DNA of 64,000 nt from Bacteroidales bacterium (GTDB taxonomy: Bacteria; Bacteroidota; Bacteroidia; Bacteroidales; UBA12077): positions 1,937-65,936 of the forward strand of contig JAIORB010000133.1 of NCBI GenBank assembly GCA_021108325.1. The letters run 5' to 3'. The notes under the pieces are model-generated. The model ran no database searches. It saw only the letters and a program-made list of their open reading frames with translations, and was not told where the DNA came from. The translations under genes were made by a program, and so were the position numbers. Below are positions 2,791-48,745 of the stretch, piece after piece. Positions within the stretch are counted from its first letter, which is position 1. Each line of letters begins with the position of its first letter.

Positions 2791-5700
2791 ATGATGAAAA
2801 AGAATATAATTCTCTTTTTGCTATTATTTATATATATCCCATTAACTGCACAAATTAATAAAAATGGAATTCCCCTTATAAAAAATTATGCACCCAACGA
2901 TTATAATGCTGCTGAACAAAACTGGACAATTTGTGAAGATAATCGGGGAGTCATATATTTTGGGAATAATGATGGTGGAATATTAGAATTTGATGGAAAT
3001 AGTTGGGAAAGAATTCCAATATCAAACGGTTCAATTATAAGATCATTAGCATATTCAGATGATGGAACTGTTTATGTAGGAGGAGTTGAGGAGTTTGGAT
3101 ATTTAACACCTGATAAAAAGGGTGAAATGTATTATCATACTTTGACTAATCAGTTAGATACTGTTGATTTTAAGGATGTATGGAAGATATATACTGTTAA
3201 TAATGAAGTTTATTTTTGCGAGGACAGGAATATATTTAAGTTCGTTGATAAAAAATTATCGAATGTATACAAAAATACCGGAGAATCATTTTTAAGCTTT
3301 TTAGTTGGAGATAAAATATATTGGGGTAGTTATGATAAAGGATTATATGAATTAATTGAAGATACAATACAATATACGAATGGGGGCGATTTTTATAAAG
3401 AGAAAGATATTTTTGTTATGTTGCCATGGTCTGAAAATGAAATTTTTATAGCAACAATTGGGCAGGGATTATATATTTATAATAGAGTGACTGGATTATC
3501 CCAAGATTTTAAATCTATGGGAGTAGAATTTCAAGAATTATACAATTTGCTTGACCAATCGCAAATATATAATGGTATAAAACTTTCTAATGATCAATAT
3601 GCTCTAGCGACATTGAATAAAGGTTGTTTAATATTTAATCAGGAAGGTGAATTAATACATAAGTTAGATAAAGAAAATGGATTACAGGACCTTACCGTAA
3701 TTAATTTGTTTGAATCAAAAGATGATCATTTATGGTTAGGATTAAATAAAGGGATATCTTTTATAGAGTATAATACTCCATTTACTAAATTTGATCAGGA
3801 ATATGGCATTGAAGGAATTGTCGTTGATGTAATACGTTATAATAATATTCTTTTTGTTTCGACAAATATTGGTTTATATTATTTAGATTATGATTCTCAA
3901 GATATGCCTGTTTTTATGAGTATACCTATGGATAGAACCGTTACTGATATGGACATCTTTAAAGATTATAGAACAGGCGAAACAAAGCTTATAATAGGAT
4001 CTAATTTTGGTGTTTGGGAATTTATATCTAAAGGTAAAGAACCTGATTATATTTCAACAACTGCTTATGAATGTGAAGTTATTTATCAATCAAGCTTATT
4101 TCCTAATAGATTATATGTTGGATGTTTAAATGGTCTGGCTCTATTAGAGTATAATAACAATGCATGGATTGATAAAGGAAATGTAAACGATGATATTTCG
4201 TCTCAAATAACGTCTATAATTGAAGATGAAAAAGGTAATATTTGGTTAGGATCTGTATTAAAAGGGGTTATAAAATTAAGTAGCGATCAAAATATAGAAA
4301 GATATGGTATTGAGGATGGTTTACCAGATATGAATGATAATAAGGTTTACTTTATTGATAATCAAGTTGTGTGTGCTACACAAAAGGGTTTATATAATTA
4401 TAATAAAGCAACAAATAAATTTGAAAAATACAAAGATTTTGGTGAGAAGTATTTTTTAAATACTGACAAAGTAAAAAGTATTGATTTTGAAAAAAAAGAT
4501 GAATATTGGATAGTTTTATCTAATTCAGTAACTAATTATGAATATATTGAGAAATTAAGAATTAGCCAGGATAGAATTGTAACTATTGAGGATATTCCCT
4601 TTAAACGTTTATTAAAAAAATCTTTTTACGAATTTACTTTTGATGGTGATAATGGCGTTTGGATTGCAACTTCGGATGCAATTTATAATTATCAGGAAAG
4701 ATTACAAGACGATTTTTCAAAGTTTTACAATAGCCTTATCCGTAAAATTGAAATGGGAATTGATTCTGTTATATTTTGGGGAACTTATTATAAAGATACT
4801 TCAAATCTTATTGTTGATTTGAATCAACCTGAAGAGCTTAAAAAAACAGTTAAGTATAAAGATAATTCATTTAATTTCTTTTATTCAACTCCATTTGTTC
4901 CAACCGATGAAATTAAATATAGTTATAAACTTGAAGGTTTTGATGATCAGTGGTCGAGTTGGAATATAGAAACAGACCGTGGTTATACTAACCTTAATGA
5001 AGGTCATTATACTTTCATGGTAAAATCGAAAAATATTTATGGTATCGAAAGTGAAGTTGTTACATATGAGTTTAGTATTAGACCACCTTGGTACAAAACT
5101 TTATTGGCTTATTTCTTTTATATTGTTTTAGCAATTTTTGTAATAATTGTTATTGTTAAAATTTACACCAGGAGGTTAGAATTAGAAAAAATTCGATTGG
5201 AACAAATTGTAAAAGAACGTACCGAAGAAGTTGTTAAGCAAAAAGATGAGATTGCTGAAAAGAATAAAAGTATTACAGATAGTATAGAATATGCGAGTCG
5301 TATACAAACAGCTATATTACCATCAAAAGAGTTTGCCGAAGAAATCCTTCCGGAACATTTTATATTATTCAGGCCTCGCGATATTGTTAGTGGTGACTTT
5401 TTCTGGATGACAAAAAAAGATAACTTAGTGGTTGTAATTGCGGCAGATTGTACAGGTCATGGAGTTCCGGGTGCTTTCATGAGTATGTTGGGTGTTTCTT
5501 TCTTAAACGAGATTGTTAACCGACACGAAGTTACTTCAGCCAATGTTATTTTAAATAACTTAAGAAGGGATATTAAGAAAACTCTTGGTCAGGAAGGTAA
5601 AGAAGGTGAAGCAAAAGATGGTATGGACATTGCCTTATGTGTTATTGATATTGAGAATATGAAAATGCAGTATTCCGGAGCTTATAATCCGCTATATTTA

Positions 5701-6376: not shown

Positions 6377-8008
6377 ATGTTATATAAGAATTCAATTTTC
6401 TTAAAAAAATATCCCCTACTTCTATTTTTGATTTTTTTATTAATATTTCAATCTATACAAGTTTATGGCCAAAATGTAAATCAAAATAATAGAGTCCTGT
6501 CAATAATAGATGTAGCAGAGCTTACACTGGAAAACAATAAAAATATATTAGTTAGTAAATCAAATGTTGAGGTTGCTGAAGGAAATATCTTAAAATCGAA
6601 ATCTGTTTTCAATTTAAAATTTAAAGGTAGTATTGATAAAACATATACTATAACACCATTAACAATTGATCAGAGGGAAAACTTATCTGATTACTCAAAT
6701 TCAAGTTATACTGAAAATGATTTATTTGATTATACCATTGGTGCTTATAAGAAATTTAAATTCGGTACAATAATAAATCCGGGTATAACTTTTACTAATT
6801 TCGGAAAGGATACTCTTTACAATTATTTATATGAAGCAGGATCTGGTGAATATATAACAAATAGAAGTAAAGTTTATCTAAATCTAAATCAACCAATTTT
6901 AAAAGGAGCCGGAAAAGAATATAATACAGCAGATCTTAGAATCAGTAAAAAAAGATACCAGCTAACAGAAGAATATTATTACCATAATATTTCAACGAGC
7001 TTATTAGAATCTTTTATTGCATATTTAGAATATATTGGGGTAAAAAAGAATCTTGAAATACAAGAAAATATTGATGATAAATTTTTATTGGTAATTCATC
7101 AAATTGAAAAATTGATTGAAATGGATGCAATACCTGCATCGGATTTAAATTATTTAAAGGCAAACTATACAGCAAGAAAATCTGAATTGGTAGATGCTCA
7201 AAATCAATTGCAAAATTATAAAATACATTTAGCTAATAAAATTGGTCTTGATAGAGAAGAAATACCTAAGATGTTTGAACCTCCAAATGAGTATATAATT
7301 TCAGATATTGAATTAGTTTCAAGAAAAGAAGATTATATTGGATACTCTTATAGACAAAGCTTAATGAATAGAAAAGATTATCTTGGTTCAGAATTATTGT
7401 TGGATGTTGAAAAAGAATTAGTTAAATACTATAAAAAGAGTTTAAAGCCAACGCTCGATTTAAATTTATCTATAGGTTATAATGGCATTTACGAGTCTGG
7501 TAATTTTGATCAATATTACAAACCTTATTTTGAAAATATCCCGGGAATAAATTATAAAGTTGGAATTTCATTTGTTATAGATGCAAATAATGACTTAAAT
7601 AATGGAAATCTAATAGTTGCAAAAGGTAATTATAATAGGCAGAAAGCATTATCACAATCCTTAGAAGAAGATATATATATTAATATTTCAAAGTTTTACA
7701 ACGATATTATTAATTACAAAGAAATAGTATTATTGTATAAAGAAACAGTAAGGTTTTATGAAGAAGCTTTAGAAAATGAGAATATAAAACTAAAACTTGG
7801 AACATCAACGGTTATTAACCTGGTTCAAATTCAAAATGATTATTATTTAGCATTAGATCTTTTGTATAGCGCTATATTAAATTTGAATATGTCAATACTT
7901 TATTATAGATATCATACAGGAACGTTGTGCTCTATTATTGATGATAATACTATTGATATTGATTATCAGAATTTATTTTCGTTACCTTTTAAATTTGATA
8001 ACTACTAA
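6377..8008 (+). CDS. TolC-family outer membrane factor of the peptide export cluster
   Basis: N-terminal signal; OEP-like pattern (TLENNKNI..., KPTLDLNLSIGY, LKLGTSTVINLVQIQNDY). The stop abuts the HlyD start (taaATG). Confidence 0.8.
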   Translation: MLYKNSIFLKKYPLLLFLIFLLIFQSIQVYGQNVNQNNRVLSIIDVAELTLENNKNILVSKSNVEVAEGNILKSKSVFNLKFKGSIDKTYTITPLTIDQRENLSDYSNSSYTENDLFDYTIGAYKKFKFGTIINPGITFTNFGKDTLYNYLYEAGSGEYITNRSKVYLNLNQPILKGAGKEYNTADLRISKKRYQLTEEYYYHNISTSLLESFIAYLEYIGVKKNLEIQENIDDKFLLVIHQIEKLIEMDAIPASDLNYLKANYTARKSELVDAQNQLQNYKIHLANKIGLDREEIPKMFEPPNEYIISDIELVSRKEDYIGYSYRQSLMNRKDYLGSELLLDVEKELVKYYKKSLKPTLDLNLSIGYNGIYESGNFDQYYKPYFENIPGINYKVGISFVIDANNDLNNGNLIVAKGNYNRQKALSQSLEEDIYINISKFYNDIINYKEIVLLYKETVRFYEEALENENIKLKLGTSTVINLVQIQNDYYLALDLLYSAILNLNMSILYYRYHTGTLCSIIDDNTIDIDYQNLFSLPFKFDNY

Positions 8009-9619
8009 ATGAATAATCAACTATTTAGAAAAGAAGCCTTAGTTAGAATTGAGTCTCCCGAGAGACTAAATGAAATGGTTAAGATTACATCTGCCAGAAG
8101 TTGGTTAATATTGACAGCTATAATTGGTGTTTTAACAGCTTTTATTCTATGGAGCATATTTGGCGAATTACCGTATACGATAAATGGTCAGGGAATTATT
8201 CAACAGCCGGGAGGTATTATCGAAATTGCATCAATTGCACCCGGAAGAATTGAAAGAACAATGGTGCTTGAAGCGGATATTATTAACGAAGGTGATGTAA
8301 TAGCTTATATTGATCAACCTGAATTGGAAATGCAAATTGAAAATGCTAAAAAAGAACTTGCTGATATTAACAAGAGATTTATGCAGATTTCTGATTTCGG
8401 TTATGAAAATTTAGAGTTGAAAAAAATATTATACGATAAAGAAGAAAAAATTTTAAATAAAACCATAAAGTTAAACCTTGATAGATTAGATTTTATAAAG
8501 GAAAGAATAGCTGCCCAGGAGGAACTTTTAGCAAAAGGCTTAATCACTAAAGAAAATTTAAATAACACTAAAGAAGAGTTTTTTAATATTCAGCAGGAGA
8601 ATGACAACCTTTCAAATGATATGAAAGAATTGCAACAAAAAATTTATGAAATTAAAGAACAAAATGAAATAGAATTAAATCAGATTAAATCAGAAATTCT
8701 TAACGTTGAAAATAGAATAAGAGAATTAGAAGCTTTACATCAACTTAATACGAAAGTTATTAGCCCTTATGCAGGAAAAATTATTGAATTAATGGTAAAT
8801 CCGGGCAAAGTAATTGAAGCAGGAAACCCGATTGTGAGTATTGAACCATTGAACTTAATAAATGACCTTCAGGCTATAATATACGTAAATCCAAAAGAAG
8901 GTAAAAAGATAGAACCCAAAATGAAAGTAAAACTTTCTCCTTCTACAATAGAAGTAGAAGAATTTGGATATATTAATGGTATTGTAGAGAAAGTTTCTGA
9001 GTATCCATCTACATTTCAGGGAATGTTGAGAACATTAGGGAGCATGGAATTAGTAAAAACATTTACACAGGAAGGGCCGCCAATAGCCATCAAAGTTTAT
9101 TTGGATAAAGACTCAACCACCTTTAGCGGATATTCATGGACATCTAAGCATGGGCCTGAATTAGAAATAAAATCGGGTACTTTATGTTCATCTAAAATCG
9201 TTACCGAAACAAGAAGGCCAATTTCTCTATTATTTCCAAAGCTTTCTAACAGAACCTCTAAATACTTAAATGAAAAATTTGAAACCAGGGAAACTAAATC
9301 AAAAAAAGAAAAAGAAGCCTATGTAATCAATCAAGAATATAATACAGAAAAGAATAAAGGATCACTGAATGATACCTTAAGTGAAAAAGTTGATATTTCT
9401 GGTTTTACAATTCAAATAGCAGCTACCAGAAGATCATTAAGTTTATATGAATTATCGACAATATATAATGGTGAAGAAAAAATTAATAAGGAATATATTG
9501 ATGATTGGTATAAATATTCAATTGGAAATTTTAGATCAAAAGATGAAGCAAAGTCATATATAAAGGAAAATAATTTAGGAGCCAGAGTATTTATAAGAAC
9601 TATAACCAATGTAAAATGA
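8009..9619 (+). CDS. NHLM/NHLP bacteriocin system secretion protein (HlyD-type adaptor) with a C-terminal SPOR-like domain
   Basis: N-terminus LFRKEAL.RIESPERLNEMVKITS is typical of the NHLM-system adaptor; TM, coiled coil, YSWTS..GP..I.SGTLC. An extra ~120-aa tail contains FTIQIAA...WYKYSIGNF.SKDEA. Confidence 0.85.
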   Translation: MNNQLFRKEALVRIESPERLNEMVKITSARSWLILTAIIGVLTAFILWSIFGELPYTINGQGIIQQPGGIIEIASIAPGRIERTMVLEADIINEGDVIAYIDQPELEMQIENAKKELADINKRFMQISDFGYENLELKKILYDKEEKILNKTIKLNLDRLDFIKERIAAQEELLAKGLITKENLNNTKEEFFNIQQENDNLSNDMKELQQKIYEIKEQNEIELNQIKSEILNVENRIRELEALHQLNTKVISPYAGKIIELMVNPGKVIEAGNPIVSIEPLNLINDLQAIIYVNPKEGKKIEPKMKVKLSPSTIEVEEFGYINGIVEKVSEYPSTFQGMLRTLGSMELVKTFTQEGPPIAIKVYLDKDSTTFSGYSWTSKHGPELEIKSGTLCSSKIVTETRRPISLLFPKLSNRTSKYLNEKFETRETKSKKEKEAYVINQEYNTEKNKGSLNDTLSEKVDISGFTIQIAATRRSLSLYELSTIYNGEEKINKEYIDDWYKYSIGNFRSKDEAKSYIKENNLGARVFIRTITNVK

Positions 9620-9635
9620 TAATGCTTTATTTTAT

Positions 9636-11792
9636 ATGAGTAAAAGAGTAAAAACCCCGGTTGTTTTGCAAATGGAAGCTGTTGAATGTGGAGCGGCCAG
9701 CCTGAGTATTGTATTATCATATTTTAAAAGATTTGTTCCCTTAGAAAAACTGCGACAAGATTGTGATGTTAACAGAGATGGAAGTAGTGCAAAGAATATA
9801 TTAAAAGCTGCTGCATTGCATGGAATGGAAGGAAAGGGATATAAGTTTGAAGTTGAAGATTTTGAAGATCAGGATTTCCCTGTAATAATTCACTGGAAGT
9901 TTAATCATTTTCTGGTTTTAGAAGGAATTAAAAATGACAAAGTTTACCTAAATGATCCGGCTGTCGGGCATCAGGTTATTACTTTGGAAGAATTCGGTGC
10001 GTCTTTTACCGGGATAATATTAGAAATAGTTCCGTCAGACAACTTTACAAAACTTGGCAAAAAAAGTAATTTATTAGCAGGATTAAAGTCAAGATTAAAA
10101 CATTACGAAAAGGATATAGCATTTATAATATTCTTAGGTTTGCTTTTGGTTGTTCCCGGAATAGTAATTCCTGTTTTCACACGTATTTTTGTTGATAATA
10201 TTTTAATTGGAAATTTAAGAGAATGGCTTTGGCCATTGGTGGCTGGCATGGCAATTACTGCAGTTTTCAGGGCTGTTGTAAATTACTTAAAATTGCATTA
10301 TTTATTGCGGACTAAGAGTAAACTTGATATGGTGACCTCTGCTAAATACTTTTGGCATGTTTTAAGATTACCAATTAGTTTTTTTAATCAAAGGTACAGA
10401 GGTGAAATAGGTAGCAGGATACTATTAAATTCTAAAGTAGCGGACCTAATAACAGGGAAATTAGCAAATAACTTTTTAGATATTATTCTTATAGCATTTT
10501 ATTTTATTATAATGCTACAATATGATGTTGTACTTACAATACTCGGTACATGTCTTTCTTTAATAAATATAATAGCCCTGAGAATAATATCTAAAAAAAG
10601 AGCAGAAGGATATTTGAATTATACTTCTGAATCAGGAAAACTCATGGGAGTAACTTTAGGAGGAATTCAAACCATTGAAACATTAAAAGCAATGGGGCGG
10701 GAAAATGATTTTTTCATTAAATGGTCGGGCTATTTTACCAAAGTTGTTAATGCCGGCCAAAAGTTAGGAATATTAACATTGTTGCTTAATTCAGTACCTG
10801 TATTATTGAAATCAATAATCACAATAGTTATATTGATAATTGGATCTTTAAAAGTAATTAATGGAGTAATTACAATGGGAATGTTGGTTGCATTTCAAAG
10901 CTTATTTGAAAGTTTTTCACAACCGATTGAGAATTTAGTAAGATTAGGAAGTGACTTACAAGAAGCGGAAGGAGATATGACCAGGCTTGATGATGTTTTA
11001 AAATCTGAAATAGATATACAGGTGTCAAGAGAGTTAAGGCTGAATAAAGATAATTATTCCGAAATTACAAAAAAATTAGATGGTTATATTGAGTTTAGAA
11101 ATGTTACGTTTGGATATTCAAATTTCTCGAAACCTTTAATAGAAAATTTAAGCTTTAAAATAGCTCCGGGAGAAAAAGCAGCCTTAGTTGGTGGTTCAGG
11201 TAGCGGAAAATCTACAATCGCTAAGTTACTAGCTGGGTTTTATGAACCCTGGAGTGGAGAAATCTTATTTGATGATAAGCCCCGGGCAGAATGGCCCCGA
11301 CAGGTTATCAATAACACGCTTTCAATGGTTGCACAAGAAGTTTTCTTATTTCAGGGAACATTTACAGAAATATTAACTATTTGGGATACAACAGTTCCTG
11401 ATCAAATGGTTATTCAGGCTGCTAAAGATGCCTGTGTACATGAGTTTATATCCGGTAAATCAAAGGCTTATGATTATGAAATAGCAGAAGGTGGAAAAAA
11501 TCTGAGTGGTGGTCAAAGGCAACGGTTAGAAATAGCCAGGGCTCTGGTTAGTAATCCATCATCGATAATTCTGGATGAAGCAACAAGTGCTCTGGATTCA
11601 TTAACTGAACAAATCGTTTTAGATAATATAGGAAAAAGAAAATGTTCTGTTTTAGTGGTTGCACATAGACTAAGTACAATTCGGGACTGTGACGAGATTA
11701 TCGTATTACAGCAAGGACAAATTATTGAGCGTGGTGTACACAAAGATTTATTGAAGAAAAAAGGAGAGTATGCAAAATTAATTGAAAACTGA
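9636..11792 (+). CDS. NHLM bacteriocin export ABC transporter with C39 peptidase domain (PCAT)
   Basis: TPVVLQMEAVECGAASL (catalytic Cys), HWKFNHFLV (His), LNDPA (Asp); ABC membrane domain; GGSGSGKST, LSGGQRQR, ILDEATSALD. Confidence 0.93.
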   Translation: MSKRVKTPVVLQMEAVECGAASLSIVLSYFKRFVPLEKLRQDCDVNRDGSSAKNILKAAALHGMEGKGYKFEVEDFEDQDFPVIIHWKFNHFLVLEGIKNDKVYLNDPAVGHQVITLEEFGASFTGIILEIVPSDNFTKLGKKSNLLAGLKSRLKHYEKDIAFIIFLGLLLVVPGIVIPVFTRIFVDNILIGNLREWLWPLVAGMAITAVFRAVVNYLKLHYLLRTKSKLDMVTSAKYFWHVLRLPISFFNQRYRGEIGSRILLNSKVADLITGKLANNFLDIILIAFYFIIMLQYDVVLTILGTCLSLINIIALRIISKKRAEGYLNYTSESGKLMGVTLGGIQTIETLKAMGRENDFFIKWSGYFTKVVNAGQKLGILTLLLNSVPVLLKSIITIVILIIGSLKVINGVITMGMLVAFQSLFESFSQPIENLVRLGSDLQEAEGDMTRLDDVLKSEIDIQVSRELRLNKDNYSEITKKLDGYIEFRNVTFGYSNFSKPLIENLSFKIAPGEKAALVGGSGSGKSTIAKLLAGFYEPWSGEILFDDKPRAEWPRQVINNTLSMVAQEVFLFQGTFTEILTIWDTTVPDQMVIQAAKDACVHEFISGKSKAYDYEIAEGGKNLSGGQRQRLEIARALVSNPSSIILDEATSALDSLTEQIVLDNIGKRKCSVLVVAHRLSTIRDCDEIIVLQQGQIIERGVHKDLLKKKGEYAKLIEN

Positions 11793-11823: not shown

Positions 11824-14736
11824 ATGAATACTGAAATAGTTAAATTCATAAAAGAAAATGGGAAACAAATTAAATTGGCAGATAATACACCTGTTGAATT
11901 TTCCGATCCCAATAAAATCTGGTATATACATAAAGGAAAAATAAATCTAAGTGGAGCTAAATCTGTAAATAATAAAATAACCGGAAAAGTTTATTATTTA
12001 TCAAAATTTCAAGAAGGAGAAATATTAATTGGATGCCAACAACAAGGTAAAAGTAATTTTTGTTTTATTGTTAGTCCTGAAGAAGATACTGTTATTTATG
12101 AATTTTCAGTAAGTTATACAAAACGAAAAATTAAGAAGAACAATGTTTTAATTAATAGATTAGTAGAGTTAATCGATAATTGGGTGATAAAATTATTTGA
12201 AATAACTAATAATTTTAGTACGAATGAAAAAAACAATATTGACTATTATTTAGATGAGAATATAATAAATGTAGAAAAACCCGAATCGTTTCTTTCAACA
12301 CGAAAAAGATTGATTTGGTTCAATTCAAATGAAAGTGAGAATTTTTTATTTTGTGGCCATTTGACCATAGAAAATACAGGGCCGGTTTTCTTTCCTGTTT
12401 CAAAAGAAGCTTATATAAAATTAAAAGAGCCGGTAAATTTAAAATCATATAAGACTCTCGATATATTCGATAAAAGTGAATTTTGGAACGGCCTGAATTT
12501 GTATATTGAGTTAATTCTTGAAAAGATACAGTATGAAATAAAACAACAAAAAAGGGTAACTGATGAATGGCTCGAAAGAAAATATAAAGCAAGAAACAAG
12601 GAGTTTTTTCATACAGTTGGCTTAGCAAAAACTGTTTTAGAAGATTCACACGAAGAACAAATAATTTCCAAGTTTAAGAAAAGTCCTGATAATTTATTTA
12701 ATGTTTGTTCTTTAGTTGCGGAGAACTTAGATATTAAATTGGTATTTCCTCCAAATTTAGAGAGCTGTTCGGACCCAATTGATGAAATTAGCAGATACTC
12801 GGGTATAAGATACAGGGAAATAATATTAGATGGGAAATGGTATAAAAATATTGGGAATAATGCATTAATAGCATTTATTGAAGAATCAAATAATCCGATT
12901 GCCATAATTCCAAAAAGGAATGAAATAATAGCATATGACCTTAAAGAAGGTACATCATTTGAAATAAATAAAAATTCACATGAAAAAATTGAGAAAATAT
13001 CTTATACGCTATACAAGCCTTTGCCAAATAAAAAATTGAAATTAAAAGATTTAATTAAATATTCAATTATAAAGAATAAAAGAGATATTTTCAGGTTAAT
13101 AAATTCAGGTCTTTTAACTACAATATTGGCGCTTCTTGTACCAATTATGACAGCAATATTATTTGATTCTATTATTCCAAATGCACAGAGTAGTCAATTA
13201 ATATATATAGCTTTTGCATTACTAATGGCAGCTGTTGGAGGCATATTTTTTGAAATTGTAAAAAGTATATCGGTATTAAGATTAAGAGGAATTATCGATA
13301 GCAATTTGCAAGCAGCTCTTTGGGATCGATTGCTTGAAATGCCTTCAGAGTTTTTTAGAAAATTCACTTCTGGTGACCTGGCAGATAGATCTTTAAGTAT
13401 TACTTATATTATTAATATTTTATCCGGTGTTATAATTACTTCTATAATAGGTGGTATTTTTTCAGTTTTTAATTTCTTCCTGTTATACTATTTTAGTCCC
13501 AAGTTAGCGTTAATTACTTCAGGATTAGTTATTGTGTACATTATAACAATGTATTTTCTTGGCAAGAAACAAATTATATATGAGAAAAAGATTCAATATC
13601 ACGAAGGAAAGAATTTTGGCATTATCTTACAATTGCTTACCGGTATAACTACATTAAAGATTTCAGGAACAGAAATAAAAGCTTTTATTCATTGGTTTAA
13701 AAACTATATTATATCAAAAGAATATTCAATTGCAGCCGAAAAAAATAAAAACATTCAGCGAATAATAAGTTCGTCATTTTATATAATCTCATTAACTATT
13801 ATTTATTTTTCTTTAATTAAACTTACAACAGGAATTACAACAGGTCAATTTCTGGCCTTTAATGCTGCATTGGGAGCTTTTATTCTATCAATGATAGGCC
13901 TTAGTGAAAGTATAGTTTACGCATTAGAAATAATTCCTTATTATGATCGAATGAAACCTGTATTTGATGAGTTACCTGAAAGTTTTGGTGTTAAAACAGC
14001 TCCTGAAGAATTAAAGGGAAACATTGAGTTACATAACATTATATTTCGATATAATGAAAACGCACCTTTAGTTTTAAATAATATTTCCTTTAAAATTAGA
14101 AAGGGAGAATATATTGCTCTTGTGGGGCCTTCCGGATCCGGGAAATCGACCATAATCAGATTATTGCTTGGTTTTAATAATTTGGATTCAGGAACTATAA
14201 TTTATGATGATCAAGAATTAAAAAATATTGATTTAAGGCTTTTAAGAAGACAATTAGGTGTTGTATTGCAGGATGGAAGTTTATTTGGTGGTGATATTTT
14301 TACTAATATTATTGGTTCATCACCTCATTTAACATTGAATGATGCATGGGATGCTGCCGAAGAAGCAGCTTTGGATAAAGATATTGAAAGCATGCCAATG
14401 GGAATGTTTACAATAGTAAGTGAAGATGGAGGTACACTTTCAGGGGGACAAAGGCAAAGATTAATGATAGCCAGGGCATTAGTTCATAAGCCTAAAATAT
14501 TAATTTTTGATGAAGCTACTTCTGCACTTGATAACAGGACACAGGCAATTGTGACCGAAAGTCTGGACAAACTTCAGGTGACAAGAATTGTTGTTGCTCA
14601 TAGATTAAGTACAATAAAAAATGCCGATAGAATAATATACCTTGAAGAAGGTAAAATATTGGAAGAAGGAAATTACAATGACTTAATGCTGCTTAAAGGA
14701 CGTTTCTATGGGCTTGCACAGAGACAACTTGAATAA
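11824..14736 (+). CDS. NHLM bacteriocin system ABC transporter (peptidase-less partner with long N-terminal extension)
   Basis: N-terminal cNMP-binding-like region, degenerate peptidase-like region (IRYREIILDGKWYK), membrane domain, GPSGSGKST, LSGGQRQRL, FDEATSALDNRTQ. Confidence 0.9.
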   Translation: MNTEIVKFIKENGKQIKLADNTPVEFSDPNKIWYIHKGKINLSGAKSVNNKITGKVYYLSKFQEGEILIGCQQQGKSNFCFIVSPEEDTVIYEFSVSYTKRKIKKNNVLINRLVELIDNWVIKLFEITNNFSTNEKNNIDYYLDENIINVEKPESFLSTRKRLIWFNSNESENFLFCGHLTIENTGPVFFPVSKEAYIKLKEPVNLKSYKTLDIFDKSEFWNGLNLYIELILEKIQYEIKQQKRVTDEWLERKYKARNKEFFHTVGLAKTVLEDSHEEQIISKFKKSPDNLFNVCSLVAENLDIKLVFPPNLESCSDPIDEISRYSGIRYREIILDGKWYKNIGNNALIAFIEESNNPIAIIPKRNEIIAYDLKEGTSFEINKNSHEKIEKISYTLYKPLPNKKLKLKDLIKYSIIKNKRDIFRLINSGLLTTILALLVPIMTAILFDSIIPNAQSSQLIYIAFALLMAAVGGIFFEIVKSISVLRLRGIIDSNLQAALWDRLLEMPSEFFRKFTSGDLADRSLSITYIINILSGVIITSIIGGIFSVFNFFLLYYFSPKLALITSGLVIVYIITMYFLGKKQIIYEKKIQYHEGKNFGIILQLLTGITTLKISGTEIKAFIHWFKNYIISKEYSIAAEKNKNIQRIISSSFYIISLTIIYFSLIKLTTGITTGQFLAFNAALGAFILSMIGLSESIVYALEIIPYYDRMKPVFDELPESFGVKTAPEELKGNIELHNIIFRYNENAPLVLNNISFKIRKGEYIALVGPSGSGKSTIIRLLLGFNNLDSGTIIYDDQELKNIDLRLLRRQLGVVLQDGSLFGGDIFTNIIGSSPHLTLNDAWDAAEEAALDKDIESMPMGMFTIVSEDGGTLSGGQRQRLMIARALVHKPKILIFDEATSALDNRTQAIVTESLDKLQVTRIVVAHRLSTIKNADRIIYLEEGKILEEGNYNDLMLLKGRFYGLAQRQLE

Positions 14737-15263: not shown

Positions 15264-15392
15264 ATGAAAACAAAAAAAACAAAAAAAGATCCTAAAAAAA
15301 ACAAAAAGGAAATTAATCCAAAAGATTTAGAAAATGTAACTGGTGGTGGAAAAGTTGGTGGTTTTGCAGTTAGTGGAAGAACTTCTACCTAG
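15264..15392 (+). CDS. Double-glycine leader precursor peptide B (42 aa): MKTKKTKKDPKKNKKEINPKDLENVTGG|GKVGGFAVSGRTST
   Basis: Manual translation, ATG 15264 to TAG 15390-15392. Several synonymous differences from copy A (gac/gat, ctg/tta, gta/gtt, agc/agt) with frame and length kept, consistent with coding constraint. Confidence 0.88.
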   Translation: MKTKKTKKDPKKNKKEINPKDLENVTGGGKVGGFAVSGRTST

Positions 15393-15512: not shown

Positions 15513-16205
15513 TTATTCACCCTTAGAAGATTTAATTTTGCTTCTGTATTTCATAACTTCCGACTCCTTAAACAAAATTTTAAGTTGCAGGTAAAATACA
15601 TATCGTGAAATAATCGTCGATATGAATAAAATAATTAATAAAAAGAATATATCATTAATGATTTCGCCTATTGTAAAATTATAAAGTAATGAAATAATTA
15701 TTGCGAATATTAAAGTAAATAACAACTGACTTAAATAGACCCTTAGAGGGAAAAGGTATAAAAAACTTGTTGTTAATATAGTAATAACGGCAATATTGTA
15801 GTTTCCGTCACCATATTTTATAAAAATTACCGACTTAAAAACAGACCATAAAAGAATAAAAATCGATATAATTCCATGGACATATTTATGGTGACCTTGA
15901 ATATTCCTGTGAGTTTTTACCTGGTTAAAATATACATATATTGTAAAAACGAATGAAAATACTAAAAAAACGATATCAGCTTTAAGATGAATAAGAAACA
16001 CCTTGTAGTCTGCAAGTTTTTGTATTATAGATATATCATAAAATGTAAATGCAGAAGAGCATATAATTAAAAAAACGGTTAAATATTTTGATCTTATATT
16101 ATTTAGAAAGCATAGTCTTTTACTAAAGTCTTCGCTAAGGTTTTGTGGGTTAATAAATAATTTTTGAAAGCTTGTCATTAATAAAGTATTGATACGTTCT
16201 ATCAA
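15513..16205 (-). CDS. Hypothetical multi-pass membrane protein (5-6 TM)
   Basis: 230-aa ORF with several hydrophobic helices; convergent with the precursor genes; start uncertain. Confidence 0.65.
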   Translation of the reverse strand: MIERINTLLMTSFQKLFINPQNLSEDFSKRLCFLNNIRSKYLTVFLIICSSAFTFYDISIIQKLADYKVFLIHLKADIVFLVFSFVFTIYVYFNQVKTHRNIQGHHKYVHGIISIFILLWSVFKSVIFIKYGDGNYNIAVITILTTSFLYLFPLRVYLSQLLFTLIFAIIISLLYNFTIGEIINDIFFLLIILFISTIISRYVFYLQLKILFKESEVMKYRSKIKSSKGE

Positions 16206-16249
16206 ATTTAGTAAAAAAATACTACTTTATTAAAATTCCCTTAAATAAT

Positions 16250-16272
16250 AAAACCGCTCTTAGAGCGGTTTT
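16250..16272 (-). terminator. Terminator downstream of tRNA-Arg
   Basis: aaaaccgctct-t-agagcggtttt perfect hairpin with A/T tails on both sides. Confidence 0.75.
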
Positions 16273-16273
16273 G

Positions 16274-16346
16274 TGAACCTGGAGGGATTCGAACCCCCAA
16301 CCTCCTGATCCGTAATCAGGTGCACTATCCATTATGCTACAGGTCC
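16274..16346 (-). tRNA. tRNA-Arg(ACG)
   Basis: Minus strand GGACCTG TAGCATAATGGATAGTGC A CCTGA TTACGGA TCAGG AGGTT GGGGG TTCGAAT CCCTC CAGGTTC A folds as a cloverleaf with anticodon ACG; CCA is not encoded. Confidence 0.93.
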
Positions 16347-16579
16347 AATTTATTTTTTAAAAATTCTCTTCCGATTCCGGATTTAAAATATTTTTCTCTT
16401 TTTCTTGCTTCTTCTCTGCTAGTAACTTTTTCATAATATGCTATTTCCCATGGCTTGTAAGGAGCTGTTGATTTATTCTTACCATAATTATGTTCACTTA
16501 ACCTCCTTTCCAAATCCGTTGTAAATCCCTTGTATAACCTTCCGTCTTTAACACTTTTTATAACATAAACAAAGAACAT
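16337..16579 (-). CDS. Small stand-alone GIY-YIG nuclease (YhbQ/UPF0213-like)
   Basis: FFVYVIKS...LYKGFTTDLERRLSEHN.G..KST..YKPW...YYE...REEARKREKYFKSG.GR. The last codons and stop overlap the tRNA 5' end. Confidence 0.9.
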   Translation of the reverse strand: MFFVYVIKSVKDGRLYKGFTTDLERRLSEHNYGKNKSTAPYKPWEIAYYEKVTSREEARKREKYFKSGIGREFLKNKLDL

Positions 16580-16592
16580 ATTATTGTTTTTA

Positions 16593-16649
16593 CTGTAGTT
16601 AGGTGCACCCTGCCTGCCGGCAGGCAGGTATCCATTATGCTACAGGTCC
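16593..16649 (-). pseudogene. Disrupted 5' half of tRNA-Arg (duplicate) interrupted by a 20-bp palindrome
   Basis: GGACCTGTAGCATAATGGATA[CCTGCCTGCCGGCAGGCAGG]GTGCACCTaactacag is identical to the tRNA 5' end apart from the insert and diverges in the anticodon arm. Confidence 0.85.
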
Positions 16650-16659
16650 AATTGCGGTG

Positions 16660-16667
16660 CAAATATA
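16660..16667 (-). promoter_or_regulatory. Bacteroidota -7 promoter box (TATATTTG) upstream of the tRNA fragment/GIY-YIG/tRNA unit
   Basis: Minus strand tatatttgcaccgcaatt immediately precedes the tRNA 5' copy; matches the TAnnTTTG consensus. Confidence 0.65.
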
Positions 16668-16727
16668 TATAAAAAACCTCAAATTATAGCTTTTTGTATA
16701 AAGCTTTCAATTTAAATATTAATGACC

Positions 16728-16760
16728 AGCCCTGCTAGGGTTTTAAACCCTGGCAGGGCT
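16728..16760. repeat. REP-like palindrome with GTTTTAAAC centre
   Basis: agccctgctagg-gttttaaac-cctggcagggct; related arms at 26734-26815 and the same architecture at 28158-28192. Confidence 0.55.
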
Positions 16761-16893
16761 TTGGCGAATAATATCAAAATATCAGATTTATGTAAAAAAT
16801 TTTAATTTTAATTACGCGATTTATAATTTTAATCTCATCTATTATTTAGTAAATTTGAATAATATTTTAATTTCTAATATAAAAATCCATATC

Positions 16894-47569: not shown

Positions 47570-47739
47570 GCCTAACACGCAATCAAAGTACATACGGTCC
47601 CGATAATTATCGGGATTGGTGGTATTTTGACAACCTGCTTGCCAGCAGGCAAGTTTTTGTTATCTTTAACTTTCGGTAACGGTGGACACTGAAACAAAGC
47701 GAAAATCCCGCACAGCTTCAAACCCGCGGACCGTTAAAA
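47570..47739 (+). repeat. attC-like site 5 (170 bp, lengthened by two mini-palindrome insertions)
   Basis: R'' GCCTAAC, R' GTTAAAA; inserts tcccgataattatcggga (47598-47615) and cctgcttgccagcaggcaag (47634-47653). Confidence 0.8.
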
Positions 47740-48609: not shown

Positions 48610-48745
48610 CCCATAACAGCGGGTCTTAAAGCATGCGGGATTTTGGTAGGATTTTGACAACCTGCTTGCCAGCAGGCAAGTTCTTGTTATCTTTAACTTT
48701 CGGTAACGGGGTCCCAATAGTTATGGGATGAAACAGGGCGAAAAA
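48610..48745 (+). repeat. attC-like site 6 (truncated; right arm and R' missing)
   Basis: CCATAAC agcgggtcttaaagc... is homologous to attC4/5 up to gaaacagggcgaaaa, then no ggaccGTT follows. Confidence 0.7.

Follow-up and report, generated by a model that had tools for sequence, protein, structure and literature searches.

A single-domain GIY-YIG nuclease gene and a conserved palindrome at a tRNA-Arg gene of a Bacteroidales bacterium, a probable compact selfish cassette

The locus described here occupies positions 16250 to 16667 of a 64,000-nt stretch of a Bacteroidales draft genome (the whole stretch that was analysed, from here: the window). On the minus strand, a promoter box is followed by a dead 5′ half of a tRNA-Arg gene that contains a palindrome, by a short ORF for a GIY-YIG nuclease, by the intact tRNA-Arg(ACG) gene and by a terminator-like hairpin. 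The individual features are:

16660..16667, minus strand: −7 promoter box TATATTTG, within the block TTTTTATATATTTGCA (read from the sequence)
16629..16653, minus strand: direct repeat copy 1, consisting of 4 leader nt and dead tRNA-Arg nt 1–21 (exact 25-nt repeat)
16629..16649, minus strand: dead tRNA-Arg copy, nt 1–21 (21-nt partial tRNA copy by BLAST)
16609..16628, no strand: perfect 20-nt palindrome CCTGCCTGCCGGCAGGCAGG, at the 3′ end of the D loop of the dead copy, after GGATA
16593..16608, minus strand: dead tRNA nt 22–37 (GTGCACCTAACTACAG), ending in the anticodon loop (read from the sequence)
16580..16592, minus strand: A-rich 13-nt spacer ahead of the start codon (read from the sequence)
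16337..16579, minus strand: ORF of an 80-aa single-domain GIY-YIG nuclease (ORF call, Pfam)
16326..16350, minus strand: direct repeat copy 2, in the ORF end and the start of the intact tRNA (exact 25-nt repeat)
16273..16346, minus strand: intact tRNA-Arg(ACG) (ARAGORN; Rfam tRNA 67.1 bits, cut-off 29)
16250..16272, minus strand: intrinsic-terminator-like hairpin, then a T run

The order of promoter, dead tRNA 5′ half, GIY-YIG ORF, tRNA and terminator had been proposed in the initial annotation, and direct reading, Pfam, ARAGORN and Rfam recovered every element of it. The whole arrangement is real, it lies where it had been placed, and chance is no explanation for it. The two 25-nt direct repeat copies are exact, have a spacing of 303 nt and bound the unit, in agreement with the annotated element of about 300 bp delimited by a direct repeat of the tRNA 5′ end. 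The last codons of the ORF and its TAG stop are built from the leader and tRNA nt 1–10; the stop at 16337..16339 (minus strand) corresponds to tRNA nt 8–10, hence the annotated end of the 80-aa ORF within the first 10 nt of the tRNA is correct. A dead 5′ tRNA half is present as well, but it does not simply diverge in the anticodon arm, as had been thought: its D loop is interrupted by the palindrome, and the copy ends in the anticodon loop at approximately nt 37. Over nt 22–37 of the dead copy the initial 8 nt match the tRNA and divergence follows beyond. Position 32 is a C in the dead copy, whereas the intact tRNA has a T there, both in this genome and in the six genomes nearest to it. A stem CTGTAG/CTACAG is predicted around the palindrome; the fold of the dead half is no more stable than that of shuffled sequence (z −0.5 as RNA, −1.35 as DNA).

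Bacteroidota promoters have the consensus TAnnTTTG, and we take TATATTTG to be a promoter box of this type. The sigma-70 consensus, with which the locus was also scanned, is not suited to such promoters. The block TTTTTATATATTTGCA is kept within the genus in all eight cassette-bearing (filled) loci that were fully seen and in 20 of 20 listed empty loci, where it immediately precedes the tRNA. There is no second promoter box between the ORF and the intact tRNA. The assembly has 34 tRNA genes, and this tRNA is the only one with an ACG anticodon. Three public RNA runs contain only 4–5% of the sampled words, probably from conserved tRNA. This DNA occurs in populations of marine sediments and cold seeps.

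An absence of integrase and transposase had been noted initially, and matches to such families were indeed lacking in six larger ORFs that were scanned from 9.6 to 23.5 kb of the window. These flanking ORFs comprise two ABC transporters, one of them with a C39 peptidase domain, a DUF748 protein, a GyrI-like protein, a C69 peptidase and one ORF without any match. A tRNA intron or split tRNA was rejected as the downstream tRNA is complete and contiguous, and a group I intron with an endonuclease gene in the anticodon loop was rejected because the ribozyme would not fit in the unit. Between positions 15800 and 17200, Rfam yielded 6 matches at E ≤ 1; none is to an intron family, and only the tRNA reaches its threshold.

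The 80-aa protein is a member of the GIY-YIG superfamily by profile, conserved residues and predicted fold. It matches Pfam GIY-YIG PF01541 over residues 1–67 (E = 1.6e-16, 60.8 bits, cut-off 22.6), and Y5, Y16, G18, R26, H30, N31 and E62 are among 28 invariant columns in an alignment of 11 sequences. Work on I-TevI and UvrC has assigned roles to the two Tyr and the Gly, Arg, His/Asn and Glu residues of the motif; in the present protein these roles are putative. The structure model (pLDDT 92.4) has the GIY-YIG alpha/beta fold, for which Foldseek returned UPF0213, HIGLE, Slx1, I-TevI and UvrC GIY-YIG domains. The ORF is under purifying selection, with dN/dS values of 0.04–0.28 in 28 of 28 pairs of eight genus orthologs. 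The PADLOC models for known anti-phage defence yielded 0 families at E ≤ 0.01, and PHROGs contained no match to the protein.

Occurrence of the design elsewhere was surveyed for the best 80 of at least 595 nuclease relatives. A tRNA association of homologs had been predicted initially, and a tRNA is present in the locus of 74 of these 80; it is a tRNA-Arg in 66 of the 74, with five different anticodons. Among the same best 80 of at least 595, the tRNA overlaps or directly follows the end of the ORF in 60 cases, and a palindrome with at most 3 mismatches lies no more than 150 nt upstream in 55. In all, at least 10 tRNA types are colonised, and in each case a dead copy of the tRNA concerned is present. 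Carriers include isolates of Flavobacterium, Algoriphagus, Litoribacter, Flagellimonas and Algibacter. Stop codons that overlap the tRNA are frequent yet do not define the element: of the 60 relatives in which a tRNA adjoins the end of the ORF, 32 have the stop within the tRNA and 28 have it ahead of the tRNA, and a tRNA-internal stop is thus a frequent by-product. Throughout the order, a relative at E ≤ 1e-15 was found in 49 of 151 genomes; six matches have internal stop codons, several genomes have copies 290–690 nt apart, and tandem arrays reach up to five copies. In another family, two tandem units stand ahead of tRNA-Arg(ACG). Tandem amplification, suggested initially as a check, is therefore a fact.

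The initial annotation treated the palindrome as incidental, a view that has to be abandoned. As judged from the compared sequences, no other part of the unit is as well conserved: 39 of the best 80 of at least 595 relatives have an exact copy, although the proteins are only 54–80% identical, and the loci with the exact palindrome include some labelled Patescibacteria and Gammaproteobacteria. This exactness in the face of protein divergence makes it probably the partner site of the nuclease, for which it is our candidate. In the survey of relatives, 44 of 57 copies follow GGATA, GAATA or AGATA at the D-loop end. In the present genome CCTGCCTGCCGGCAGGCAGG occurs as a single exact copy, but a palindrome family with at most 4 mismatches has 48 copies, versus 0 in each of 10 shuffles. 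Copies with at least 4 paired flanking bases are enriched (16 of 48, compared with 636 of 5000 random windows); with at least 5 paired flanking bases the numbers are 5 of 48 and 197 of 5000. A position within an existing hairpin is thus a tendency of the palindrome, not a rule. On viral contigs, a nuclease relative lies within 600 nt of only 1 of 40 exact palindrome copies, thus the palindrome also exists apart from the gene. The exact palindrome string was absent from the literature searched.

The same genome contains further pairings of this kind. At a tRNA-Met, a nuclease with 38% identity is accompanied by the hairpin TCCCGAT..ATCGGGA, which has 29 copies in the genome versus 0–1 in shuffles. 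Moreover, repeats conforming to the published Ssn motif flank a 105-aa GIY-YIG gene, whose product is 38% identical to the window nuclease over 69 aa. An ORF-less remnant is found at tRNA-Arg(CCT).

A comparison of empty and filled alleles in close relatives had been recommended to check the initial reading. Of 37 genus genomes, 10 have a filled locus, 21 have an empty one and 6 are unclassified, and a flank-gene tree of 28 scored genomes requires at least 8 state changes. One genome (G002) has an empty allele with flanks 95–97% identical to the window. In 4 genus genomes, tRNA-Arg(TCG) carries the same design, with a nuclease 54–55% identical to the window nuclease in the alignment and about 58% in tblastn, and one nuclease copy of the genus is frameshifted. 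The nuclease clusters mirror the flank-gene clades; for this reason, old vertical inheritance with many precise losses accounts for the distribution about as well as repeated gain. Nevertheless, for the pair G023 and G034 the dS is 0.38 for the nuclease gene against 2.13 for a neighbouring gene, a hint of lateral exchange. The dead copy in the window shares changes with the copy in G020; these changes and C32 fit equally well with import together with the cassette and with a duplication older than the T32 change of the working tRNA.

Four metagenome runs from four studies contained only pieces of the filled form, and the joint of an empty site, from promoter to tRNA, was in none of their contigs. 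A 433-nt metagenome contig from another sample covers tRNA, ORF and dead copy with zero differences, and one metagenome contig has an ORF with an 11-nt deletion. Two odd joints, 16411 to 16608 (X5) and 16431 to 16637 (X4), were seen in one contig each with sides of 25–30 nt and were not relied on.

Taken together, we consider it fairly probable that the locus is a compact selfish cassette, in which a palindrome and a single-domain GIY-YIG gene are lodged in a tRNA gene via a partial tRNA duplication. The core of the initial interpretation, a nuclease-only unit behind the tRNA promoter with the intact tRNA restored downstream, is thereby upheld, with the palindrome as the part that it had misjudged. 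The promoter that directly drives tRNA-Arg(ACG) in empty alleles here precedes the dead 5′ half, and, as there is no second box, we infer one transcript, with the dead half and hairpin as 5′ leader, then the nuclease ORF and then the essential single-copy tRNA. Selection for this tRNA would guarantee nuclease expression. By analogy with Ssn nucleases, the palindrome in its hairpin form would be the cognate DNA site of the enzyme, which would probably recognise it in single-stranded DNA. The cassette may be gained by homologous recombination, with the tRNA sequence on both sides serving as portable homology arms (left, the promoter and tRNA nt 1–21; right, the whole tRNA), and it may be lost precisely by recombination between the 25-nt repeats. 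Since an intact tRNA copy remains available after filling, the cassette would be able to multiply into tandem arrays. Gain, loss and amplification would all be promoted by nuclease-made nicks or breaks at the hairpin or close to it, comparable to the action of SegB in the tRNA regions of phages. When RNase P cleaves the transcript at the 5′ end of the tRNA, the ORF would lose its stop, which could limit nuclease output, presumably as a side effect of compaction; the geometry of the locus is right for such control, which from the positions of the stops would not be a general feature.

In a possible but doubtful extension, palindrome and enzyme would constitute a new bacterial transposable element with a GIY-YIG single-strand nuclease as transposase. 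It would insert into the loops of hairpins that the DNA of tRNA genes, which are structured and heavily transcribed, forms when single-stranded, the palindrome into the D loop and the gene into the anticodon loop, and the partial tRNA duplication would regularly be made by the mechanism. This would explain why at least 10 tRNA types are occupied and why a dead copy of the respective tRNA is present in each case. A homing endonuclease of the classical, free-standing type would instead cut the intact duplex tRNA-Arg gene of an empty allele, close to the D loop or the anticodon loop; the cassette would be copied in during repair from a filled allele, and the palindrome would be a scar that destroys the target. 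Such an enzyme would suit the polymorphism of the cassette among close relatives and the tight tie to tRNA genes (66 of 74 at tRNA-Arg with five anticodons, for the best 80 of at least 595). Tandem arrays would be expected from re-cutting of the surviving intact copy, and SegB, whose cleavage sites lie in tRNA genes, is a precedent among GIY-YIG enzymes (PMC13096335). We regard this explanation as unlikely, since an 80-aa bare catalytic domain leaves no space for a DNA-binding domain such as known homing enzymes have, the score with TIGR01453, the model for group I intron endonucleases, is 15.8 bits (cut-off 56), and the modelled fold is closer to Slx1, HIGLE and UPF0213 than to I-TevI. Moreover, the intact tRNA of a filled allele would remain cuttable, and identity across phyla is not expected of a mere scar when the protein has diverged to 54–60% identity.

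A quite improbable alternative is a resident Ssn-like single-strand nuclease that is useful to the host, e.g. by limiting uptake or recombination of palindrome-bearing DNA, and that is expressed from a tRNA operon by chance, inherited vertically with many losses. The decayed copies (the frameshifted genus copy, six with stops, the 11-nt deletion and the ORF-less tRNA-Arg(CCT) remnant) speak against a host function, as do the colonisation of at least 10 tRNA types with a dead local copy in each, the tandem arrays of up to five copies and the presence of a relative in only 49 of 151 genomes of the order. It would fit with the strong purifying selection, with nuclease clusters that match the flank-gene clades of the genus, with the filled form as the sole form in 4 of 4 metagenome runs and with the modulation of natural transformation by SsnA in Neisseria (PMC11893778). 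An assembly artefact or chance repeat, conceivable for a draft genome of 160 contigs and a repeat that often breaks short-read assemblies, has a negligible probability: the same architecture is present in 8 independently assembled genomes of the genus and in dozens of named public records, including contigs of 0.3–2.9 Mb, and the difference-free 433-nt metagenome contig spans tRNA, ORF and dead copy.

Literature searches aimed at this layout and at follow-up work on Ssn returned no account of a GIY-YIG cassette that is lodged in a tRNA gene together with a palindrome. If the selfish cassette is real, it would be among the smallest autonomous selfish units known in bacteria, with one 80-codon gene and one 20-base site, and about a third of the genera that were sampled from the order, as well as several phyla, would harbour such cassettes within essential tRNA genes. 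For the recently found Ssn type of single-strand, hairpin-specific nuclease, this would add another niche and another cognate sequence, which would be attractive for a reagent that cleaves single strands. The cassettes would also account for many dead fragments of tRNAs, tandem arrays of pseudo-tRNAs and breaks of contigs beside tRNA genes in draft genomes, and the coupling of tRNA processing to stop-codon loss would be an unusual expression control.

Among solved structures, the best sequence matches are the UPF0213/YhbQ proteins 1ZG2 and 1YWL (E = 9e-8 and 4e-6), and the best fold matches of the structure model are 1ZG2 (E = 8e-4) and Slx1 (TM 0.71, rmsd 1.8 Å, 71 columns). The entries 1ZG2 and 1YWL are named only "hypothetical protein", and our literature search found no functional study of small YhbQ/UPF0213 proteins. 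Slx1 has further domains and requires Slx4.

Integrase-borne genomic islands duplicate the 3′ end of a tRNA gene and carry a tyrosine or serine integrase. The cassette resembles them in using a tRNA gene as a landing site that is rebuilt from a duplicated tRNA segment. An island of this type was rejected here: the duplicated part is the tRNA 5′ end, the unit measures 303 bp and the six larger ORFs have no integrase match. REP/RAYT and IS200/IS605 elements use HUH/Y1 enzymes and have no tie to tRNA gene duplications. They share with the cassette a small nuclease gene and a dispersed hairpin repeat that is acted on in single-stranded DNA; the enzyme of the cassette is a GIY-YIG nuclease and its action on single strands is putative. 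Both groups of hairpin-dependent elements are named in the Discussion of PMC11893778.

Homing endonucleases of the Seg and I-TevI type join a catalytic domain to a C-terminal DNA-binding domain. The protein studied here, with 80 aa in total, has no such domain; presence and absence of the element at the same site in close relatives, another feature of these enzymes, was observed. SegB of T-even phages cuts inside tRNA genes and drives the recombination-dependent amplification of a segment consisting of tRNAs and segB (PMC13096335). Both are GIY-YIG genes embedded at tRNA genes, and the tandem amplification by SegB resembles the tandem units of the cassette. However, SegB is a phage protein that acts on double-stranded DNA and has a C-terminal part whose truncation abolishes toxicity, whereas the cassette encodes a bare catalytic domain and resides in bacterial chromosomes. 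For SegB, neither a conserved palindrome nor a dead tRNA half is reported.

Ssn nucleases are site-specific and cut single-stranded DNA next to flanking hairpin repeats, named NTS/SRM (PMC11893778; Chenal et al., Nat Commun 2025). Ssn and cassette nucleases are both small single-domain GIY-YIG proteins (about 80–105 aa; about 94 aa for Ssn, 80 aa here), their genes adjoin a GC-rich hairpin repeat that is itself scattered through the genome, and different nuclease clades pair with different hairpins. The 38% identity over 69 aa to the motif-flanked GIY-YIG gene of the same genome provides an indirect link to the Ssn family (cd10448). On the other hand, the 48 hairpin copies are far below the hundreds reported for Neisseria Ssn (PMC11893778), and the palindrome is one-sided, located upstream only and without the oriented GTCATT arm, while Ssn repeats are often found on both sides. 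The published degenerate SRM motif had 0 matches at positions 16201–16760 of the window and 8 in the genome, none of them at the locus. In addition, the cassette gene lies inside a partial tRNA duplication, and the word tRNA has 0 occurrences in the main text of PMC11893778. Without a match to the Ssn repeat motif and without a homing DNA-binding domain, the cassette probably belongs to neither family. By analogy, the best reading is that it would work like the Ssn nuclease/hairpin pairs.

The cassette, a 303-base unit on the minus strand, combines a palindrome and an 80-aa GIY-YIG ORF within a partly duplicated tRNA-Arg(ACG) gene. The initial annotation had described a promoter, a dead tRNA 5′ half, the ORF, an intact tRNA and a terminator in this order, and it was correct: all parts were found on the minus strand at 16667-16250.

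Features of the cassette and their positions in the window
16667-16660, minus strand: promoter box TATATTTG (sequence read)
16653-16629, minus strand: 4-nt leader and tRNA-Arg nucleotides 1-21, belonging to the dead copy (sequence read)
16628-16609, minus-strand reading: perfect palindrome CCTGCCTGCCGGCAGGCAGG (sequence read)
16608-16593, minus strand: tRNA nucleotides 22-37 of the dead copy, the first 8 nt as in the tRNA, divergent thereafter
between dead copy and ORF, minus strand: spacer of 13 nt (sequence read)
16579-16337, minus strand: GIY-YIG ORF of 80 codons (ORF call)
16346-16273, minus strand: intact tRNA-Arg(ACG) (ARAGORN; Rfam 67.1 bits vs gathering score 29)
16272-16250, minus strand: terminator-like hairpin and T run

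The leader and tRNA nucleotides 1-10 supply the final four codons and the TAG stop of the ORF, and an exact 25-nt direct repeat bounds the cassette (16326-16350 and 16629-16653, spacing 303). The dead copy, the broken tRNA-Arg 5′ half upstream of the ORF, is present as annotated, but the annotation had underplayed that the palindrome splits its D loop and that its 3′ end lies in the anticodon loop. The promoter block found directly before the tRNA in empty alleles, which lack the cassette, stands before the dead half in the window, and there is no TAnnTTTG box between the ORF and the intact tRNA, the sole ACG-anticodon gene among the 34 tRNAs of the assembly. The scan of the region from 9.6 to 23.5 kb covered the six larger ORFs, and no integrase or transposase family matched any of them. 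The cassette is a real and non-random feature.

Some further observations concern its surroundings. At 16593-16644, the dead-copy change G36A, found in 5 of the 9 dead copies seen in the genus, makes CTACAG (nt 32-37) the perfect complement of CTGTAG (nt 5-10), and the palindrome then caps a longer, imperfect hairpin; the fold of this stretch was not significantly better than those of shuffled sequences. The interval from the DUF748 gene to the tRNA promoter contains a 31-nt near-perfect palindrome, GCCCTGCCAGGGTTTAAAACCCTAGCAGGGC (16740-16772), which also occurs in the empty allele of a close relative (G002), where two substitutions restore a perfect palindrome. Two ABC transporter genes (9636-11792 and 11824-14736, both plus strand), one with a C39 peptidase domain, are followed just downstream by a 42-aa ORF (15264-15392, plus strand) with a double-glycine-type leader motif (..DLENVTGG..); the three ORFs probably form a locus for a small exported peptide or bacteriocin.

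The 80-aa product consists of the GIY-YIG domain alone (Pfam GIY-YIG match, E=1.6e-16). An alignment of 11 homologs contained 28 invariant columns, including Y5, Y16, G18, R26, H30, N31 and E62, whose roles we take to be those assigned in work on I-TevI and UvrC. The AlphaFold model was confident (pLDDT 92.4), and its nearest solved folds were the uncharacterised UPF0213 protein BH0048, the HIGLE catalytic domain and the Slx1 nuclease domain (TM 0.71, rmsd 1.8 Å for the latter), with I-TevI and UvrC structurally much more distant. By sequence, the best solved relatives were the UPF0213 proteins EF2693 and BH0048; a literature search on YhbQ and UPF0213 returned no study of their function. The protein scored far under the cut-off of a group I intron endonuclease model and had no match in PADLOC and PHROGs searches. 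Since dN/dS was 0.04-0.28 in all 28 pairs of eight genus orthologs, the gene is maintained by selection.

The draft genome of the window (G000) was compared with 36 other genomes of its genus, and both empty and filled alleles, a comparison proposed in the initial annotation, were found. The filled architecture was seen in full at tRNA-Arg(ACG) in eight genomes (G000, G029, G020, G021, G006, G034, G025 and G023) and up to the contig end in two more, G009, with a double hairpin in its dead copy, and G005, with a variant palindrome of 16 nt. In 21 genomes, G007 among them, the site was empty, the conserved block TTTTTATATATTTGCA and a short leader being followed directly by the tRNA; six genomes were unresolved. 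G002 is empty despite flanks 95-97% identical to the window. Filled genomes are scattered over a tree of the neighbouring DUF748 gene (its first kilobase), and at least 8 changes of state among the 28 scored genomes are required. Because the nuclease sequences cluster like the flank clades, repeated gain and an old insertion with many precise losses via the 25-nt repeat are equally parsimonious. Between G023 and G034, dS was 0.38 in the nuclease gene vs 2.13 in the neighbouring gene, and the block of tRNA, ORF and dead copy was 80-95% identical vs 45-85% in the flanks. Moreover, at tRNA position 32 the dead copy of the window carries the C found in other tRNA variants of the genus, whereas the working tRNA of G000 and its six nearest relatives has T there; two further changes are common to the dead copies of the window and G020. 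The dS contrast and the dead-copy changes make us lean towards some lateral exchange; they can also be explained without transfer, by the high sampling variance of a small gene and by an old duplication.

Near-identical DNA is present in marine-sediment and cold-seep metagenome runs. Contigs from four runs of four studies hold pieces of the filled form, one of 433 nt matching without any difference and another carrying an 11-nt deletion within the ORF. None of the contigs in these four runs joined an empty site, which is no proof of absence because the contigs are fragmented. Usable RNA data were looked for and not found, three runs registered as RNA matching only 4-5% of the sampled words.

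The same design recurs at other loci. G000 encodes GIY-YIG relatives at nine places, four of them beside a tRNA. On its contig C27 (~9160-10130, outside the window; loci L003 and L004), two dead tRNA-Met 5′ copies, one with a CCTGCC..GGCAGG-type palindrome in the D loop, are followed by the intact tRNA-Met and two identical 351-bp tandem units, each with a nuclease gene 38% identical to that of the window. Both genes end with a TAG stop in the D arm of a partial 3′ copy of tRNA-Met that has the hairpin TCCCGAT..ATCGGGA in place of its anticodon arm. On contig C35 (~3580-3710, outside the window), the intact tRNA-Arg(CCT) is preceded, at a distance of 27 nt, by an ORF-less dead copy with two palindrome insertions, which resembles what is left of a cassette after loss of the nuclease gene. 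At tRNA-Arg(TCG), four genus genomes have a cassette arranged like that of the window, whose nuclease is 54-55% identical by alignment and about 58% by tblastn; here the duplication includes the promoter box, and the stop codon falls inside this box. In a genome of another family, two tandem units precede tRNA-Arg(ACG).

A wider scan of one genome per species yielded at least 595 relatives, of which the best 80 were examined. Among these 80, a tRNA was present within the 2.6-kb locus in 74, overlapping or directly following the ORF end in 60 and standing just before the ORF in 9; 66 of the 74 were tRNA-Arg with five anticodons, the others Asn, Leu, Lys, Gly and Met. The tRNA-overlapping stops and tandem amplifications that the initial annotation had suggested looking for both exist in relatives: among the 60 loci the stop codon lies within the tRNA in 32 and ahead of it in 28, and two-unit and five-copy arrays occur. 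Of 151 genomes sampled from the order, 49 had a relative at E<=1e-15, several with copies 290-690 nt apart and one with five in a row. The cassette belongs to a widespread, apparently undescribed class of tRNA-lodged nuclease-plus-hairpin cassettes.

Other tRNA-derived arrangements were noticed as well. Locus L116 (~1060-1200) holds a full-length dead tRNA-Arg(TCT) in which palindromes occupy the D loop as well as the anticodon loop, and downstream of the ORF at L108 and L094 there are palindrome-bearing pseudo-tRNA arrays that ARAGORN calls odd tRNAs. Downstream of tRNA-Ser(TGA) on G000 contig C39 (7334-9426, outside the window), its final 19 nt are found twice more, at 7537 and 9408. They bracket about 1.9 kb containing a long ORF on the reverse strand, as is usual for elements that have integrated at the 3′ end of a tRNA gene.

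The palindrome is the best conserved part of the unit. Among the same best 80 of at least 595 relatives, it occurs at most 150 nt upstream of the ORF with up to 3 mismatches in 55 loci and exactly in 39, including loci with Patescibacteria and Gammaproteobacteria labels, where protein identity to the window nuclease is only about 60%; GGATA, GAATA or AGATA, the 3′ end of the D loop, precedes it in 44 of 57 copies. A non-coding 20-mer must be under direct constraint if it remains identical next to a protein that drifts, the simplest candidate being recognition by the adjacent nuclease. In G000 (31.6% G+C) there are 48 copies of this family at up to 4 mismatches (0 in ten shuffles) and 29 of the second hairpin family, TCCCGAT..ATCGGGA (0-1 in ten shuffles). 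The hairpin also exists apart from the gene, since only 1 of 40 viral-contig stretches with the exact palindrome had a nuclease relative within 600 nt. Elsewhere in the window, two diverged copies of the palindrome family (CCTGCTTGCCAGCAGGCAAG; 47634-47653 and 48661-48680, corresponding to 49570 and 50597 of contig C13) lie ~1 kb apart in near-identical flanks, the first preceded by 20 nt by a copy of the second hairpin family (CCCGATAATTATCGGG, 47599-47614).

These features suggest a mechanism. A single transcript would carry both nuclease and tRNA, and the host would therefore be unable to silence the nuclease without loss of an essential tRNA. RNase P cleavage would remove the last two codons and the stop of the ORF and so throttle protein output, an effect that would be a by-product of compaction and not its purpose, because almost half of the relatives with a tRNA at the ORF end stop before it. 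The palindrome, folded as a hairpin and probably in single-stranded DNA, may be what the nuclease recognises. Homologous recombination would use the tRNA sequence at either side to spread or remove the cassette, which could multiply because the intact tRNA copy stays available as a landing site; nicks or breaks by the nuclease would stimulate all three processes. That palindrome and nuclease instead form a true transposable element inserting into loops of single-stranded tRNA-gene hairpins appears rather unlikely to us, and we favour the recombination route.

Two known systems offer comparisons. Ssn proteins are described as single-domain GIY-YIG nucleases of about 94 aa that cut single-stranded DNA beside NTS/SRM hairpin repeats, which flank ssn genes and are scattered genome-wide; the main text of that paper makes no mention of tRNA (PMC11893778). 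The window cassette may work like such a nuclease/hairpin pair, but it differs in its repeat, as nothing in it matches the degenerate SRM motif given in that paper. Genome-wide, G000 has 8 SRM matches, 5 of them close to the Neisseria NTS. On contig C7 (53170-53660; ORF at 1486-1800 of locus L008), TGTCATTCC..GGAATC repeats resembling the published Neisseria NTS/SRM motif stand on either side of a GIY-YIG gene encoding 105 aa, and five NTS-like matches lie elsewhere in G000. This looks like a locus of Ssn layout in a Bacteroidota-type genome, and the 105-aa protein is 38% identical to the window nuclease over 69 residues. Since the window, tRNA-Met and C7 loci carry different hairpins, three nuclease clades are present in G000, every one of them with a hairpin of its own, as a family of cognate pairs would predict. 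SegB, a phage GIY-YIG homing endonuclease, is reported to be enriched next to tRNA genes, to cut inside them and to drive recombination-dependent tandem amplification of the tRNA-plus-segB segment (PMC13096335). As described there, it provides a tested route to tandem arrays of the kind found for tRNA-lodged cassettes, but the enzyme is larger, its substrate is double-stranded DNA and no palindrome partner is described for it. Neither a description of the tRNA-lodged layout, in a search that included Ssn follow-ups, nor the palindrome string itself was found in the literature searched. By analogy with both systems, we rate the window cassette as a putative Ssn-like nuclease/hairpin pair with a SegB-like tRNA association.
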